This document shows positions 24,582 through 33,147 of a stretch of 33,147 nt of DNA, piece after piece. The stretch is taken from IMG/VR virus record IMGVR_UViG_2630968543_000006, one strand, 5' to 3'. The stretch is from a virus (taxonomy: Duplodnaviria; Heunggongvirae; Uroviricota; Caudoviricetes). Position 1 is the stretch's first letter; every line of letters begins with the position of its first letter. A program made the translations under genes and the position numbers. Below the pieces are notes generated by a model that saw only the letters and a program-made list of their open reading frames with translations, did no database searches and was not told the DNA's origin.

Positions 24582-24776
24582 ATGTCAACGAAGAACAGAA
24601 CCCGCAGAACAACAACCCGCAACATCCGCTTTCCTAACCAAATGATTGAACAAATTAACATCGCTCTTGAGCAAAAAGGGTCCGGGAATTTCTCAGCCTG
24701 GGTCATTGAAGCCTGCCGTCGGAGACTAACGTCAGAAAAGAGAGCATATACATCAATCCAAAGTGATGATGGATGA
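24582..24776 (+). CDS. ylcI: Small basic protein, YlcI-like ORF (counterpart of the lambda right-end small ORF)
   Basis: 64-aa ORF MSTKNRTRRTTTRNIRFPNQMIEQINIALEQKGSGNFSAWVIEACRRRL... in the position of the lambda ORF between bor and cos. Family assignment from memory only. Confidence 0.55.
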   Translation: MSTKNRTRRTTTRNIRFPNQMIEQINIALEQKGSGNFSAWVIEACRRRLTSEKRAYTSIQSDDG

Positions 24777-25462: not shown

Positions 25463-25924
25463 CTATCTGCACTGCTCATTAATATACTTCTGGGTTCCTT
25501 CCAGTTGTTTTTGCATAGTGATCAGCCTCTCTCTGAGGGTGAAATAATCCCGTTCAGCGGTGTCTGCCAGTCGGGGGGAGGCTGCATTATCCACGCCGGA
25601 GGCGGTGGTGGCTTCACGCACTGACTGACAGACTGCTTTGATGTGCAACCGACGACGACCAGCGGCAACATCATCACGCAGAGCATCATTTTCAGCTTTC
25701 GCATCAGCTAACTCCTTCGTGTATTTTGCATCGAGCGCAGCAACATCACGCTGACGCATCTGCATGTCAGTAATTGCCGCGTTCGCCAGCTTCAGTTCTC
25801 TGGCATTTTTGTCGCGCTGGGCTTTGTAGGTAATGGCGTTATCACGGTAATGATTAACAGCCCATGACAGGCAGACGATGATGCAGATAACCAGAGCGGA
25901 GATAATCGCGGTTACTCTGTTCAT
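25463..25924 (-). CDS. Rz: Rz i-spanin
   Basis: ATG at 25924 gives [50 protein letters not shown]... (153 aa), matching lambda Rz. Start overlaps the R stop (ATGA). Confidence 0.93.
25522..25704 (-). CDS. Rz1: Rz1 o-spanin (lipoprotein embedded in the +1 frame of Rz)
   Basis: 60 aa, [20 protein letters not shown] (lipobox) [40 protein letters not shown]; entirely inside Rz. Confidence 0.9.
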
Positions 25925-26418
25925 TGCTGACCCCACAAACAGATTTCACGCTCAATCTCACGACGAGTCATGAGACCTTTCCATTGCTTACCGCCAGCAT
26001 ATGTCCAGCGACGTAGCTGATCACATGCGCCTTTGATATCGCCCTGGTTTATTTTGCGAAGAAGCGTCGATGTTCTGAAATTGCCAGCACCCACGTTGTA
26101 AACGAATGAGTAAAGAGCGCCGCGCGTTGTTTCCGGTATATCGACTTTGATGTACGGGTTAATTTGTCTGGCGACAGTGGCAAGGTCTTTATTCAAGAGT
26201 GCTTTGCATTCTGCTTTGGTATACGTTTTACCGAGCATGATGTCTTTTCCTGTATGCCCGTGACATACAGTCCATACACCAACAATATCTTTGTATGGTA
26301 TGTAGCTGACACCTTCCAGACCATCGTTACCACTTGGGCCAGTAATTAACACTGATGCTATAGCAATTGCTCCGCCACCAATAGCAGCAGCAACGGCTTT
26401 TCGTAATGATGGAGGCAT
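25921..26418 (-). CDS. R: SAR endolysin, phage-21 R-type lysozyme (not the lambda R transglycosylase)
   Basis: 165 aa; N-terminal signal-anchor-release segment [20 protein letters not shown] followed by a lysozyme domain (...[14 protein letters not shown]...). Matches P21 R / DLP12 RrrD by recall. Confidence 0.9.
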
Positions 26419-26633
26419 TATTCACCTCTCGCAGCCTTGCGCTTATCTTCTTTAATCTTGAAATAAAGGTTTGTCAGGTACGTCAGCAGGCCAAATACCA
26501 GGCTACCCAGCACTCCAATTGCCGCCCACTGTGAGGGCGTGACTTTATCTAGCAGCTGTAAAAACCAGTACCCGGCACTACCTGCTGAGGTGCCATAGGC
26601 GACACCCGTTGTTAACTTATCCATGGATTTCAT
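26418..26633 (-). CDS. S: Pinholin S (phage-21 S-type) with dual-start motif
   Basis: 71 aa, [74 protein letters not shown] codons at 26633 (M1) and 26624 (M4) are consistent with the S21-71/S21-68 pair. Confidence 0.9.
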
Positions 26634-26744
26634 AACCCCACCTCGCAGACAAAGCGGGTGTAAATTGAGGGAATACTACGAAACGTAACAGACTCGGAGT
26701 CAGTGAATAACTCAGGTATTGGGTTATCAGCTAATATCGAGACT

Positions 26745-26778
26745 CAAAAAATGGAAAAACCCGCTCGACGGCGGGTTT
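26745..26778 (-). terminator. Intrinsic terminator on the late-gene strand, about 110 nt upstream of S
   Basis: 8-bp stem aaacccgc (26757-26764) / gcgggttt (26771-26778) followed on the minus strand by TTTTCCATTTTTT. Confidence 0.5.
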
Positions 26779-27205
26779 AAGCTGTGTGACGAAGTAACCA
26801 CTCTTAACAGCATAACCAATTTTTTACGTACGTAAACCACTAAATGATATTTGCGAGAATGCTACCGAGTATTGAAAACACCACTACAAATACATAAGCA
26901 AATCTCAACAAATAACCAACAAATAATTTCCAGCGTTATTTTTAGCCGATTTAAATTGAACCTTCAAATTATAGAGCACTTATAAATAACAGCCATTAAT
27001 ATAAATTGGCTAATAGATTTATTTTTATTCAGCCAAGAGCCATGAATAGGATTCGATAGAAAAAAGTTCAGATAAAAATAGAGATCTACTTCACAAATCA
27101 AACGAGAAACCAAAACTTACATCTTGAAATAATCACATTGATTAGATGAATATTTATCGCGCAGTGACATCATTTTTTAATAATAGTTCAAAAAAAGGGC
27201 TCACG

Positions 27206-28288
27206 ATGAAAAAATTAACAGTGGCAATTTCTGCTGTAGCTGCATCAGTACTGATGGCGATGTCTGCTCAGGCAGCTGAAATTTATAATAAAGACAGTAA
27301 CAAGCTGGATCTGTACGGGAAAGTTAATGCTAAGCACTACTTCTCCTCTAATGATGCAGATGATGGTGATACTACTTATGCCCGTCTTGGCTTCAAAGGT
27401 GAAACCCAAATCAACGATCAACTGACTGGTTTCGGTCAGTGGGAATATGAATTCAAAGGCAACCGCGCTGAATCTCAAGGTTCTTCCAAAGACAAAACCC
27501 GTCTTGCATTTGCAGGCCTGAAATTTGGTGATTACGGCTCAATCGATTACGGCCGTAACTACGGTGTAGCATACGACATCGGTGCGTGGACTGACGTTCT
27601 GCCAGAATTCGGTGGTGATACCTGGACCCAAACAGATGTGTTCATGACTGGTCGCACTACTGGTGTTGCAACTTATCGTAACAACGACTTCTTTGGTCTG
27701 GTCGATGGCCTGAACTTTGCTGCTCAGTATCAGGGTAAAAATGACCGCACTGACGTAACTGAAGCCAATGGTGATGGTTTCGGTTTCTCCACTACTTATG
27801 AGTATGAAGGATTCGGCGTGGGTGCAACCTATGCTAAATCAGATCGCACTGACGGTCAGGTCGCCTATGGTAAGAGCAAATTCAATGCCTCCGGCAAAAA
27901 TGCGGAAGTATGGGCTGCAGGCCTGAAATATGATGCGAACAATATCTATCTGGCTACCACATATTCTGAAACTCAGAATATGACCGTTTTTGGTAATAAC
28001 CATATTGCAAACAAAGCACAAAACTTTGAAGCAGTAGCACAATATCAGTTTGACTTCGGTCTGCGCCCATCTGTTGCTTACCTTCAGTCAAAAGGTAAAG
28101 ACCTTGGTGTTCATGGTGACCGAGACTTAGTCAAGTATGTCGATGTCGGTGCTACTTACTACTTTAATAAAAACATGTCCACTTTTGTTGATTACAAAAT
28201 CAACTTAATTGACGATAGTAAGTTTACCAAAACAGCTGATATTGATACCGACGACATCGTCGCTGTAGGTCTGGTTTACCAGTTCTAA
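27206..28288 (+). CDS. nmpC: General outer-membrane porin, NmpC/Lc type (OmpC/OmpF/PhoE family)
   Basis: ATG at 27206 gives signal peptide [23 protein letters not shown] then [24 protein letters not shown]... and C-terminal ...VAVGLVYQF (360 aa). Opposite orientation to the late genes, between Q and S, as in DLP12. Confidence 0.9.
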
Positions 28289-28425
28289 TCTGATTACGAA
28301 AAAGATATGTTGCGGGAGGCGTTGCCTCCCCAACATATAAGTGGCTCCCTCAAGCCACTTCCTTTAGAAGCACAACCTTGCTTCTAACTATATAAACCTT
28401 CTGTTATATATTACCCTTTATTTTT

Positions 28426-28450
28426 GGGGGCGTCTCAACGCCCCATTTTT
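28426..28450 (+). terminator. Hairpin plus T-tract about 140 nt downstream of nmpC (plus-strand terminator candidate)
   Basis: Stem ggggcgt (28427-28433) / acgcccc (28438-28444), then a T5 run at 28446-28450. A second GC hairpin gggaggc/gcctccc at 28314-28330 lies right after the nmpC stop. Confidence 0.45.
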
Positions 28451-28477
28451 AATAATTTTTAGTAAACAATTGGCATA

Positions 28478-28861
28478 TTAATTAGAGTTATTAACAACGA
28501 TATCCATCTCTAACTGGATATCTAATGCCATTAACATCCCTTCAATTATGCCCTCAGCCTTCTGTAACCTTTTCCCGATATAACCATCAGAGCAGCAATG
28601 CTTACCTGCCAGTGACATGAATGTCATACCGACTACATAATAATCTACTAATAAATCGTGCAAATCGCTGTTGTTCTTTTTCAGACGGGCCATGCACCCG
28701 CAAATGATCATAGCGTCATCGTCACAACATTGCGGGCGAGATTTTACTTTTGAAGTAATTAATCCCTTAAAACCGGCGGCAATGGACGACCAGGTCACAT
28801 CTTCATGATTATTAGCCGCCCACGCTCCCCAACGCTCAAGAACCATCTGAATATCACGCAT
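28478..28861 (-). CDS. Q: Late-gene antiterminator Q (DLP12 QuuD / phage-82-like type)
   Basis: ATG at 28861 gives [62 protein letters not shown]... (127 aa). Matches DLP12 QuuD by recall. Track start is TTG at 28876. Confidence 0.85.
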
Positions 28862-28946
28862 CAACTTACTCCACAAAAATCAGACCAGAACGCCAATTAC
28901 AAGCAAAAATCAACAAAACAGTATTAGTTGATTGTTATCTCTGACT

Positions 28947-29083: not shown

Positions 29084-29446
29084 TCATTCATTCCCCATTT
29101 CGGTGATGGTCAGTTCCAGCCTCCCACCTTTGGTAACAGGCATCTTCACAACGCGGTAATCAACGACCTGAGCATCATCCAGCCAGAAACCTGCTTTGGT
29201 GAGTGCGTCAAAAGAGGCTTTTTGTAGATTATCCAGGTCACGGCGACGGCGATCCGGCATGTGGCACTCAATGCGGATTTTCACAGGCATAGCCAGACCG
29301 ATATCCAGCATTGAGCCTTTAATGATTCGGGCGACGTTATCGCGGTATGCCTGCCCTTCTGCGCTGATGTGCGTGCGCCCTCGATTATGGCGGTAGTAGC
29401 GGTTATTGCTCGGCGGCCAGGGTAGTGTGATGTGGTAAGTATTCAC
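29084..29446 (-). CDS. rusA: Holliday junction resolvase RusA
   Basis: 120 aa, [120 protein letters not shown]; near-identical to E. coli RusA by recall. Confidence 0.95.
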
Positions 29447-29733
29447 GCCTTAATTACCCCCTCTTTCAGCCAGATAACCTGCGTTCTCGCCATACCTTCC
29501 AGCGCGCATTCTTTTGCATATCCAGCGTCAACAAAATGCGTGCGGCGGTCGATTTCGTCGTGGCAGGCAGAACATGCAATGGTGGCAATCAGGTCTGGCG
29601 GTTTCGTACCGGTGCCGCACAATCCAGTCAGCCGGATATGTGCCAGTACAGACGTTTCAGGGTTGCCATTACATACGCCAGGGATTCTTACCTGGCATTC
29701 CCGACCACGCGCTGCTTTTCTCAAATCAGCCAT
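29443..29733 (-). CDS. ybcO: YbcO-like protein (DUF1364, putative nuclease)
   Basis: ATG at 29733 gives [64 protein letters not shown]... (96 aa). Cys-rich; matches DLP12 YbcO by recall. Confidence 0.85.
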
Positions 29734-29896
29734 GATTCCTCCTTGCTGCCAGTCGCAACCATTTTTTATCAACCAGGCTAGCGGTATATCCGAGCAGTGT
29801 TGGTATTTCGGATGGCTTCAGCTCAGGTTTACGCTTACGACGATTTGGTACTTTGTAGATGTGTCCGTTCATGACACGAATAAGCGGTGTAGCCAT
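29726..29896 (-). CDS. ninE: NinE-like protein
   Basis: Hand translation gives the 56-aa [56 protein letters not shown]. Start overlaps the ybcN stop and stop overlaps the ybcO start. Below the track cutoff. Confidence 0.7.
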   Translation of the reverse strand: MATPLIRVMNGHIYKVPNRRKRKPELKPSEIPTLLGYTASLVDKKWLRLAARRNHG

Positions 29897-31395: not shown

Positions 31396-31890
31396 TCATT
31401 TCCAATTGCAAGACTGTGAAATTTTTTCCACAACCTTATCAATCTCAGACAAGTCAAACTCAACTACTTGCATAGTTGATCCATAAGGTTCAAACCCAAA
31501 AATAGCTTTTTTATGCTTAGCCAAGGTCTTTATAAATTGTATTGGTTGTGGAGCAAATGCAGAATCACCGCCTTCCCCACCTCCCCAAGCACTCTTGACC
31601 GGCTTTCCGCCATCTAACCGCACTGTAATTCTTGGGTTGTCCGAACCCATATAATCATTGAATGATAAATAGGCATCTGTTTTGTTATCACTACAACGCA
31701 ACACCAGTGAAGTTGCACGATCAGTACCTGCTTTGTTATATGAATCTGGTGATAAATTAAGAGCCACAAAGTCAGTCTGGTCAGTCATTTTATTTATCTC
31801 AGACTTTGTTATCCACGACCCTAACTTCTCTACACCAGCATTTGCAGTAAACGAGGCACTTATGACAAAGGCTATAATAAATTTTCTCAT
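31396..31890 (-). CDS. Secreted (periplasmic) protein of unknown function, likely an accessory (moron) gene
   Basis: 164 aa with signal peptide MRKFIIAFVISASFTANA. Has its own terminator and is separated from downstream genes by the ORF-poor stretch. No family recognised. Confidence 0.6.
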   Translation of the reverse strand: MRKFIIAFVISASFTANAGVEKLGSWITKSEINKMTDQTDFVALNLSPDSYNKAGTDRATSLVLRCSDNKTDAYLSFNDYMGSDNPRITVRLDGGKPVKSAWGGGEGGDSAFAPQPIQFIKTLAKHKKAIFGFEPYGSTMQVVEFDLSEIDKVVEKISQSCNWK

Positions 31891-32217: not shown

Positions 32218-33147
32218 TGAACCGCCCCGGGTTTCCTGGAGAGTATTTTATCTGTGAACTCAGGCTGCCAGATCATCGTTTCCGATGGAAGCATAATAAG
32301 CTTTTTCTGCTTCTGCCGGAGGAGTATGGCCCAGCCTTTCCAGCAATCGTCGATTGTTATACCAGTCCACCCACGTGAGTGTGGCCAGTTCCACTTCTGC
32401 ACGGTTTTTCCAGCTCTTACGGTGTATTACCTCCGCTTTGTAAAGACCATTGATGCTCTCCGCCATCGCGTTGTCATACGAGTCGCCTGTACTTCCTGTT
32501 GATGCCAGTAATCCGGCTTCCTTAAGCCGCTGTGTGTAGGCCAGCGATACATACTGAGAACCTTTATCACTGTGATGGACCGTGCCGGACGGTCGACGGG
32601 CCCATAACGCCTGCTCCAGTGCATCCAGCACGAATGTCGTCTCCATGGACGATGAGACCCGCCACCCCACAATGTATCCGGCAAACACATCAATGATGAA
32701 CGCCACATAGACGAAGCCCTGCCATGTGCTGACGTAAGTAAAATCAGCCACCCACAGCTGGTCAGGTCGTTCTGCCACGAACTGACGGTTTACGCGGTCG
32801 CCTGCGGCAACGGCTTTCCGGCTGATGGTCGTACGGACCTTTTTACCCCGGAGAACACCGGCAAGTCCCATAACCGCCATGAGACGTGCCACAGTGCATC
32901 TGGCCACTCTGATACCTTCCCGTAACAACTGACGCCAGACTTTACGCACACCGTATACCTTGTGATTTTCATCGTATACGCGCTGTATCTCTTTCTTCAG
33001 CCAGTCATCGCGCTGCGCACGGGCACTGCGTTTATCCGGATGATGTCGCTGTTGCTGACAGTGGTAATACGTTGACGGGGCAATATGCAGTTCGCTGCAT
33101 AGCGGTCCGACCCCGTACTGCTCACGCAGCTTATCCAGCAGTGGCAT
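32218..33147 (-). mobile_element. IS3-family insertion sequence (IS629/IS1203-like), terminal inverted-repeat end at 32218; extends beyond the window
   Basis: IS3-type end tgaaccgccccgggtttcctggagag beginning with TG at 32218, about 40 bp beyond the orfB stop. Element identity is from memory. Confidence 0.8.
32260..33147 (-). CDS. IS3-family transposase OrfB (DDE integrase catalytic domain); start is at the window edge and may lie upstream
   Basis: 295 aa. MPLLDKLREQYGVGPLCSELHIAPSTYYH...LWVADFTYVSTWQGFVYVAFIIDVFAGYIVGW...HHSDKGSQYVS...DNAMAESINGLYKAE carries the D, D...E hallmarks of IS3-family OrfB. Confidence 0.9.
   Translation of the reverse strand: MPLLDKLREQYGVGPLCSELHIAPSTYYHCQQQRHHPDKRSARAQRDDWLKKEIQRVYDENHKVYGVRKVWRQLLREGIRVARCTVARLMAVMGLAGVLRGKKVRTTISRKAVAAGDRVNRQFVAERPDQLWVADFTYVSTWQGFVYVAFIIDVFAGYIVGWRVSSSMETTFVLDALEQALWARRPSGTVHHSDKGSQYVSLAYTQRLKEAGLLASTGSTGDSYDNAMAESINGLYKAEVIHRKSWKNRAEVELATLTWVDWYNNRRLLERLGHTPPAEAEKAYYASIGNDDLAA

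Follow-up and report, generated by a model that had tools for sequence, protein, structure and literature searches.

The 33,147-nt stretch of viral DNA analysed here (the window; Caudoviricetes, IMG/VR record IMGVR_UViG_2630968543_000006) carries a porin gene on the plus strand, between the antiterminator gene Q and the holin gene S, both of which lie on the minus strand. An earlier note on this DNA had concluded that late transcription under Q antitermination has to cross the porin in antisense, and the question is where the late promoter and its first terminator lie. Judging from the sequence, the late promoter and terminator are placed on the lysis-gene side of the porin, so that Q-controlled late transcripts most likely begin past this gene, with no antisense passage through it. 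We give a probability of roughly 80% to the reading that the porin is a self-contained lysogenic-conversion cassette outside the Q-responsive late unit, sitting in reverse orientation in a slot between Q and the late promoter pR'.

Gene order and closest relatives

Domain matches bear out the gene identities and orientations given in the earlier note: Q (28478-28861, minus; PF06530) is followed by an intact porin gene (27206-28288, plus; PF00267) and by an S21-type holin gene (26418-26633, minus; PF04971). The Q ORF delimited by program spans 28478-28876, reaching a TTG at 28876, and homology to 384-nt quuD annotations sets the gene at 28478-28861. Its QuuD-type product matches PF06530 with E=3.5e-53, shares 77% amino acid identity with the Q protein of phi24B and matches the solved Q21 weakly (E=1.2e-6); identical copies are annotated quuD in RefSeq. 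With both the Pfam domain and similarity to characterised members present, it was assigned to the Q21/Q933W family of antiterminators. The lysis cassette (25463-26633, minus), which provides the first genes of the late operon, consists of S (P21 holin S, PF04971), then R, a SAR-type lysozyme gene (PF00959), and Rz (PF03245), and its genes carry essD/rrrD annotation in identical genomes.

The porin is a Lc/NmpC/OmpD-like protein of 360 amino acids with a signal peptide. Residues 29-360 match the full PF00267 profile (positions 1-337 of 337, E=9.5e-151) and the C-terminus reads YQF, which with the signal peptide gives a complete Gram-negative porin ending in an aromatic residue. The protein is 90% identical to Lc of phage PA-2; its N-terminal 23 residues are identical to the annotated Lc signal peptide, and the differences are grouped in three patches, presumably surface loops.

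The locus is already known: porin cassettes of this Lc/NmpC type are familiar from PA-2/DLP12-like lambdoid prophages, and, as in PA-2 and DLP12, the porin lies between Q and the lysis genes on the opposite strand. The PA-2 lc locus (GenBank J02580) matches in order and orientation (R-S, then the spacer, then the porin on the other strand), with ~97% identity in the porin-S spacer and 100% in the 189-nt Q-porin spacer. It differs in the ~10% of porin residues that make up the three patches, in a 16-nt insertion upstream of S and in a mismatch in the stem of the late terminator tR'. In the DLP12 (qsr') element of E. coli K-12, the corresponding quuD-nmpC-essD-rrrD-rzpD module is 99% identical in Q and the ipeX region and ~91% identical over the rest, and the pR' module has the same sequence. 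K-12 nmpC is split by IS5, however, whereas the porin of the window is intact, and K-12 lacks most structural genes, whereas the window has terminase-to-tail genes. The same layout occurs in the plaque-forming phages ev243, Lambda_4C10, PhiR63_2, Turner and PhiR26_1, and phage 434B works with the DLP12 Q-porin-lysis segment. Overall, the arrangement was found in ~2,400 of 5,426 complete E. coli genomes (~44%) and in 36 phage records.

A probable late promoter module beside S

A pR'-leader-terminator module of the kind that goes with this Q family is present once in the window, in the porin-S interval at 26837-26747 on the minus strand. Its predicted promoter (26809-26836) consists of a -35 hexamer TTTACG (26836-26831), a 16-nt spacer containing the palindrome TTACGTACGTAA (26835-26824) and a -10 hexamer TATGCT (26814-26809), and aligns with the annotated phi24B promoter TTTACG-16-TATCAT, which lies directly after phi24B Q. 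The late start is predicted at the A at 26802, the first base of the conserved leader AGAGTGGTTACTTCGTCACACAGC (26779-26802). This position derives from the Sakai prophage Sp5, whose pR' start was mapped by dRNA-seq 258 nt upstream of a Term-seq 3' end (PMC7547250); counting back from the U tract reaches the A of TAAGAG, 7 nt past TATCAT, and the homologous base of the window is 26802. This leader is unique in the window (100 shuffles yield 0 matches) and nearly invariant in seven diverse phages.

Downstream of the leader, the minus-strand terminator that the earlier note had seen just upstream of S proved real: terminator scan and RNA fold both give an 8-pair stem (26778-26757) with the tail TTCCATTTTT, and the element is homologous to the terminator annotated in phi24B (L002 1562-1584). 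Occupying 26747-26778, it is the first terminator after pR' and the sole one before S, which begins 113 nt further downstream, and it can be regarded as the late terminator tR'. As is characteristic of a Q-dependent late cassette, the putative promoter is thus separated by no more than ~50 nt from an intrinsic terminator that precedes the late genes; the distance from the -35 to the terminator is ~90 nt, compared with ~85 nt in the experimentally annotated pR'21 cassette of phage 21.

The stretch 26837-26755 (minus) is 77% identical over 82 nt to the pR'-leader-terminator unit of the 933W-type phage phi24B (pairwise E=5e-11), where the annotated pR', qut and terminator begin inside or just past Q, and 85.5% identical to PhiR40_1 (E=7e-22). 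In seven phages that have the porin, no invariant run of the porin-S spacer is longer than 26837-26763 (75 nt), which begins exactly where the homology to the Stx-phage pR' begins. Motif searches are far less discriminating. A consensus promoter scan at 9/12 found nothing from Q to S, and at the relaxed threshold of 8/12, which the pR' hexamers reach, equal matches lie elsewhere, two of them in the Q-proximal spacer; since such matches occur everywhere, hexamers cannot locate pR'. Likewise, generic terminator-like matches in the region are not enriched (5 found, 3.6 expected), so that significance comes from homology and conservation and not from the pattern scan.

A close counterpart is the pR'-tR' unit of 933W/Sp5-type Stx phages, the source of the small RNA StxS, which is homologous from the -35 to the first hairpin (spacer, -10, start region and leader included) and is served by Q proteins of the 77% identity given above. 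In the Stx phages, however, the unit touches the end of Q or overlaps it, as opposed to a distance of 1.65 kb in the window, and they have a second terminator at +258 and cargo (tRNAs, stx) within the late transcript. The window lacks both the StxS seed region and the second terminator, and no further terminator precedes S in it. Because the Sp5 hairpin homologous to tR' is evidently read through to that second terminator, the efficiency of tR' is uncertain.

The pR'21 cassette of phage 21 (QBE, SDPE, terminator) is comparable in combining a Q of PF06530 with an S21-type holin, a lysozyme and Rz, and in a promoter-terminator size of ~85-90 nt. Yet its Q is only distantly related (E=1e-6), its -35 begins 7 nt past the Q stop codon, and its QBE direct repeat ATTGAGCA/AATGAGCA is absent. 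The spacer palindrome, whose phi24B version is TTACGATCGTAA, and the TAAGAG motif, similar to the SDPE of phage 21 (TAAGCT), are candidates for a Q-binding or a pause element.

Taken together, comparative evidence contradicts the claim of antisense late transcription through the porin, as the only cognate module lies at 26837-26747 and the published DLP12 lysis promoter is on the S side as well. The earlier note had itself named a late promoter adjacent to S as the arrangement that would overturn its idea, and homology points to just this arrangement. RNA polymerase that has started at the pR' homolog (~26802, minus) would be joined by Q and would then pass tR' (26778-26747) into S-R-Rz and the structural genes, heading away from the porin. 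In the lysogen, pR' would give only a leader RNA of ~50-55 nt.

The pR' homolog does not adjoin Q: the Q stop codon lies at 28478 and the -35 at 26836, with the 1.65-kb porin cassette intervening. Q acts in trans, and adjacency of pR' to Q is typical rather than mechanistically required. As a diffusible DNA-binding factor, Q could therefore act ~1.65 kb from its gene.

The Q-porin spacer as a porin 3' UTR

The hairpins that the earlier note had placed directly downstream of Q are present, and their fold is significant; what changes is their assignment, as they are best read as the porin's own 3' UTR, including a plus-strand terminator. The spacer (28289-28477) folds as four to five successive hairpins on either strand, with z=-9.06 on the plus and z=-5.67 on the minus strand, and none of 200 shuffles folds as well. 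All 189 nt are identical to PA-2 (J02580) and to 434B, the carrier of the DLP12 segment, and the segment is found only together with the porin (36/36 phage records). Within it, four hairpins and a terminator (28289-28452, plus) would form the structured 3' UTR of the porin mRNA. Substitutions fall mainly in loops, and one A-to-G change creates a G-U pair on the plus strand only; covariation analysis of the hairpins was dropped, the seven sequences being 97% identical.

The transcript would end at an intrinsic terminator beside the Q stop codon (28427-28452, plus; 28427-28444 by scan), in which GGGGCGTCTCAACGCCCC forms seven pairs, six of them G-C, and is followed by ATTTTTAATA. Read on the minus strand, the same hairpin has no U tract, because the next letters are CAAAAATAAA.

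The region 28289-28452 corresponds to the one named ipeX in DLP12 and PA-2, which in DLP12 lies in the nmpC 3' UTR. It has the sequence of an ipeX-type 3' UTR of nmpC/lc and the matching location, between the porin stop codon and a Rho-independent terminator. It is reported to inhibit OmpC/OmpF expression (Castillo-Keller et al. 2006). An Rfam search of the region at gathering or E<=1 thresholds returned only chance-level Trp_leader and snoRNA matches; hence, neither the ipeX region nor the pR' leader is covered by a curated RNA family.

This spacer is also where a lambda-like late promoter would be looked for first, given that in canonical lambdoid cassettes, including the annotated one of phage 21, pR' follows directly after Q. 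A promoter here (28289-28477, minus) would make the hairpin array its leader and the hairpin at 28338-28296 its first terminator, and Q-modified polymerase would read antisense through the porin and the 26778 terminator into S. One hexamer match, though weak (TTAATA-18-AATTAT, 8/12), does begin at the Q stop codon, with a terminator-like hairpin and T run ~150 nt downstream on the minus strand. The segment, however, has no similarity to any pR' region, its strongest terminator points the opposite way, it is tied to the porin and is lost when Q homologs have other cargo, and its 100% identity is to the porin 3' UTR of PA-2 and DLP12, while a unique and maximally conserved cognate module sits beside S. 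A late promoter next to Q therefore appears highly improbable.

The minus-strand hairpin itself (28296-28338) has 15 pairs with one bulge, which is why the pattern scan missed it, and is followed by CTTTTTCG; it may act as a terminator for transcripts exiting Q. Q is transcribed toward the porin with only this terminator-like hairpin intervening, and in lambda, N-modified transcription from pR is established to go on past Q. On induction, polymerase modified by an N-type factor could accordingly pass Q on the early pR transcript, ignore the hairpin and collide with or silence porin transcription. Such read-through would add to the preferred reading of a self-contained porin cassette without replacing it. 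Neither an N gene nor a nut site is visible in the window, where an IS3-family element cuts the early region at the edge, and we consider this scenario plausible but somewhat short of an even chance. It is the only route by which induction might possibly interfere with the porin.

The porin 5' region and the sigma-E-type promoter

Upstream of the porin, a region with the RBS, 5' UTR and probable promoter (27137-27205, plus) is conserved in the seven-phage alignment, in which 27200-27137 is the second-longest invariant run of the porin-S spacer. An AT-rich spacer (26876-27055, 27-30% GC) lies between this block and the pR' block and is poorly conserved, with 6-15 variable columns per 40 nt. The porin cassette would thus comprise its own AT-rich regulatory region, the ORF, the structured 3' UTR and its own terminator, with transcription from its own promoter. 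The Lc porin of PA-2 is expressed in lysogens and alters host porin content, and the intact ORF and the conservation of the 5' region would fit expression of the window porin in lysogens as well.

The PA-2 record, of 1986, has an annotated CRP site that maps to ~27078-27098, upstream of the porin. A 'CRP site' of this record was also considered as a porin regulator; placed at 26782-26802, inside the pR' leader, it was rejected in this role, as that leader is conserved in Stx phages without a porin.

Facing away from the porin ATG, on the S side of the porin ORF, lies a second candidate for the promoter of the lysis genes, the sigma-E-like motif GAACTA-N16-TCACT (27189-27163, minus), published for DLP12 as 'essDp'. 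The '-121 to +650' region of this promoter (coordinates after Rueggeberg et al. 2015) was cloned in PMC7918800 with primers given in its Table S1, and published DLP12 work sets the Q-responsive promoter at the sigma-E-type site. The forward primer maps to 27278-27259, which together with the 771-bp amplicon puts the +1 at 27157, i.e. ~355 nt upstream of the pR' homolog start. The reverse primer has no exact match in MG1655, probably owing to text errors, and a near-match in essD reproduces the 771 bp.

It could thus be argued that essDp, back-to-back with the porin promoter, mainly drives the lysis cassette and is the site of Q action, which would leave 26837-26747 as no more than an attenuator or terminator inside a leader of 524 nt. 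The motif stands at exactly the distance expected from the published coordinates and primers, and the block 27200-27137 that contains it is invariant in seven phages. The -35 of essDp is reported to have mattered for both RpoE- and Q-dependent expression (Rueggeberg 2013 and 2015). Yet the porin's 5' UTR and its promoter, on the opposite strand, account for the invariant block equally well, the loading mode solved for the Q21 family relies on a QBE inside the promoter and on a sigma-70-dependent pause, and the canonical module is conserved in phages that lack the upstream region. We therefore regard essDp as an unlikely main driver. The published DLP12 reporter constructs include both the pR' module and essDp, so the fragment cannot separate the two candidate promoters. 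In any case, use of essDp instead of pR' would change the promoter and not the conclusion on the porin ORF.

A cargo slot between Q and pR'

Homology breakpoints delimit the porin cassette as the content of a variable slot (26838-28501) that includes the last ~8 codons of Q: homology to the Q of PhiR40_1 and ~660 E. coli records ends at 28502, and homology to the pR' module restarts at 26837. The module persists with different cargo in the slot or with an empty slot (PhiR40_1, phiP27, phi467, Stx2_14040), whereas the Q-proximal segment 28289-28501 is lost in relatives without the porin. Other occupants of the slot, most of them reversed, are a lipocalin, a T5orf172 protein and unknown ORFs.

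More speculatively, and in our estimate rather doubtful as a whole, the Q-pR' junction might be a general, transcriptionally insulated slot for lysogen-expressed cargo, and the DLP12/PA-2 lysis cassette might be fed by two nested promoters, one of sigma-E type back-to-back with the porin promoter and the sigma-70 pR' downstream of it. If so, the published RpoE/Q_DLP12 results would need to be re-read, since the fragment holds both promoters.

The analysis of the porin locus opens no new biological question, and its practical value lies in correct annotation: in PA-2/DLP12-type prophages, the porin would be insulated from Q-controlled late transcription, and its expression should therefore follow its own promoter and small RNAs rather than late antisense transcription. 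It also supplies testable coordinates for the late promoter and tR', namely a predicted start at ~26802 and a terminator at 26778-26747 in the window, equivalent to 577,229 and 577,253-577,285, respectively, in MG1655.

Gene organization and known relatives

The window is a lambdoid prophage with minus-strand late genes. An ORF listing combined with Pfam scans places RusA at 29084-29446, YbcO at 29443-29772, the Q antiterminator (PF06530) at 28478-28876 as an ORF, with the 384-nt quuD-type gene at 28478-28861, and the lysis cassette S-R-Rz at 26418-26633 (a phage-21-type holin), 25921-26418 (lysozyme) and 25463-25936 (Rz); Bor follows on the plus strand, then Nu1/terminase and the structural genes. 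As the earlier note had proposed, a full-length porin gene lies on the plus strand between Q and S (27206-28288; PF00267, E=9.5e-151), and a terminator scan likewise recovered the minus-strand terminator expected just upstream of S, here called tR' (stem 26778-26757 with a T-rich tail).

The 2.5-kb segment spanning Q, porin and S is present (coverage of at least 80%) in 2,395 of 5,426 complete E. coli genomes, where RefSeq labels its genes quuD, porin OmpC, essD and rrrD, as well as in 36 phage records. Its carriers include the plaque-forming phages ev243, Lambda_4C10, PhiR63_2, Turner and PhiR26_1, the classical PA-2 lc locus (J02580) and phage 434B, in which a DLP12 segment of E. coli K-12 replaces Q, the late promoter and the lysis region (PMC9119081). 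DLP12 of MG1655 shares the gene order of the window (quuD-nmpC(IS5)-essD-rrrD-rzpD-borD), and PA-2 Lc is 90% identical to the window porin, the differences being grouped in three patches. The system is already known as PA-2 lc and as DLP12 nmpC/ipeX/quuD/essD. A divergent porin copy with its 3′ UTR (~86% identical) is also found in a degraded remnant of a prophage close to the fli genes of E. coli SCU-111 (locus L016, 3286-4368), which keeps emrE-ybcL-ybcM and has no annotated Q or lysis genes, suggesting that the porin was kept after prophage decay.

A candidate late promoter adjacent to S

According to the earlier note, Q-antiterminated late transcription runs antisense through the porin gene. 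This claim found no support: a homolog of the Stx-phage late promoter pR' lies at 26837-26755, in the porin-S spacer, and a late promoter adjacent to S—the scenario which that note had itself set against its claim—is the best-supported reading of the sequence.

In a similarity search, the porin-S spacer gave two classes of phage matches: porin-carrying phages match over its full length, and in ~300 Stx and other lambdoid phages the similarity is confined to 26837-26755. In phi24B (933W type), whose Q protein is 77% identical to that of the window, the match coincides exactly with the late promoter, qut and first terminator as annotated, a unit beginning within the 3′ end of Q. The two regions align at 77% identity: phi24B reads TTTACG, a 16-nt spacer, TATCAT and GATAAGAGTGGTTAC..., then AACCCGC-loop-GCGGGTTTTTT, and the window reads TTTACG, a 16-nt spacer, TATGCT and GTTAAGAGTGGTTAC..., then AAACCCGC-loop-GCGGGTTTTT. 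The pR' start of the Sakai Stx phages Sp5 and Sp15 has been mapped via dRNA-seq; it precedes a Term-seq 3′ end by 258 nt and is described as ‘closely associated with Q’ (Sy et al., PMC7547250). A count of 258 nt upstream from the Sakai terminator's U tract ends at the A of TAAGAG, 7 nt past TATCAT; this A corresponds to minus-strand base 26802 of the window. The same compact layout is seen in the experimentally annotated phage 21, where a QBE lies between -35 and -10, an SDPE at +2 from the start and a terminator by +50; no QBE or SDPE could be assigned in the window. Q21 and Q933W have been put in one family (Yin et al.).

The hexamers of the pR' homolog match at only 8/12 positions, a score reached at many other places, two of them in the Q-proximal spacer. 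However, across seven porin-carrying phages (mean column identity of 90%), the longest invariant run of the porin-S spacer, 75 nt at 26837-26763, starts exactly where the Stx-phage homology starts, whereas the mid-spacer (27055-26876; 27-30% GC) is variable. The window holds a single copy of the leader motif TTAAGAGTGGTTACTTCGYCACACAG (26807-26782, minus strand), against 0 matches in 100 shuffles. A ‘CRP binding site’ of the 1986 PA-2 record, the GTGGTTACTTCGTCAC inverted repeat, maps to 26782-26802, i.e. to this leader; because the leader is equally conserved in porin-free Stx phages, such conservation does not speak for a role in regulating the porin.

Two repeats were also seen here. The pR' spacer holds a perfect 12-bp palindrome, TTACGTACGTAA (26824-26835, minus strand), a possible binding site for Q or another protein; its phi24B counterpart, TTACGATCGTAA, is also perfect although both central bases differ, and that of PhiR40_1, TTACAATCGTAA, is imperfect. 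Farther upstream, ~100 nt from the pR' homolog, the AT-rich variable spacer contains a tandem 11-nt direct repeat, TTATTTGTTGG / TTATTTGTTGA (26905-26926, minus strand), conserved in part among porin-carrying phages.

Q might instead act via essDp, the published DLP12 lysis promoter (PMC7918800; reporter fragment -121 to +650, after Rueggeberg et al. 2015). The forward primer of this fragment aligns with 27278-27259 and the reverse primer lies in essD, reproducing the 771-bp amplicon and placing the +1 at 27157, exactly the right distance from a sigma-E-like GAACTA-N16-TCACT (27189-27163). This start precedes the pR' homolog by ~355 nt, is back-to-back with the start codon of the porin gene and, like the pR' homolog, lies on the side of the porin ORF that faces S. 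Since both candidates lie inside the published fragment, it cannot separate them. Yet loading in the Q21 family uses a sigma-70-dependent pause (Yin et al.), and this, together with the homology to Stx-phage pR', leads us to rank the canonical pR' module as the Q-loading site and to regard loading at the sigma-E-type promoter as unlikely.

A cargo slot between Q and pR'

The pR' module (26837-26747) is kept where the slot between Q and pR' carries other contents: a reverse 148-aa ORF with no Pfam match in PhiR40_1 (L005 1990-2436), a forward T5orf172/MUG113 protein gene in phiP27 (L006 1239-2468), two reverse ORFs behind a lambda-type Q in phi467 (L008 1542-2416) and only 37 nt in Stx2_14040. 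In E. coli Nord58, a reverse lipocalin gene occupies the slot after Q (L015 3423-3680). At the other end, homology to porin-free Q homologs such as that of PhiR40_1 ends at 28502; ~660 E. coli records match at 80-90% identity and, among the matches listed, Q was matched only to 28502 (e.g. Nord58). Together, these boundaries delimit the slot as 28501-26838. They assign the Q-proximal hairpin region to the porin cassette and the pR' module to the late operon.

The hairpin array next to Q

The hairpins that the earlier note saw beside Q were confirmed by RNA folding: the 189-nt Q-porin spacer forms 4-5 consecutive hairpins (plus-strand z = -9.06, minus-strand z = -5.67), and 28289-28477 is 100% identical to its counterpart in PA-2 and DLP12 (434B). 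We take this nmpC/lc 3′ untranslated region to be ipeX, reportedly described by Castillo-Keller et al. in 2006 as an RNA element lowering OmpC and OmpF. A plus-strand terminator (28427-28444) closes the array and abuts the Q stop codon; read on the minus strand, this terminal hairpin lacks a U tract. At the opposite end of the array, closest to the stop codon of the porin, lies a 15-pair hairpin with a single bulge (28338-28304) and CTTTTTCG after it, which could be a stop for unmodified transcripts leaving Q. With the plus-strand terminator at the Q stop and this minus-strand hairpin at the porin stop, the convergent Q and porin transcription units appear to overlap over the array.

Inside Q and antisense to it lies the best sigma-70-like match of the region (GTGACA-18-CATAAT, 10/12; 28612-28641, plus strand). 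No CII-box motif is evident at this match; phage 21 has paQ annotated at a similar position inside Q.

Proposed mechanism

In the model proposed here, the porin gene is a moron that was inserted in reverse orientation between Q and pR'. Its own promoter would drive it in the lysogen, where pR' would yield only a short terminated leader. Upon induction, the early transcript would supply Q, which would act at pR' 1.65 kb away and let polymerase pass tR' and transcribe S-R-Rz, heading away from the porin gene. The only possible antisense to the porin would be early pR read-through past Q; this needs an N-type antiterminator, and none can be seen here, as an IS3-family element cuts off the early region at the edge of the window. 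In Sakai Sp5 (L017 769-1003), transcription passes the hairpin homologous to tR' and reaches a second terminator at +258, the end point of the StxS RNA. The window (26778-26634), in contrast, has the first hairpin only before S, so that control of the lysis genes would rest on one terminator, which may itself be leaky.

The IS3-family transposase ORF (rve, HTH_21; 32260-33147) continues past the window's right end; an ALIL frameshifting pseudoknot (Rfam RF01497, 58.6 bits) precedes it, and it lies upstream of the nin-like genes, an arrangement that may reflect interruption of the early region. Two further ORFs may be additional morons: a nin-proximal ORF of 164 aa that weakly matches VasI (T6SS) (31396-31890, minus strand; E=2.9e-6) and a 64-aa DUF3950 ORF between Bor and Nu1 (24582-24776, plus strand).
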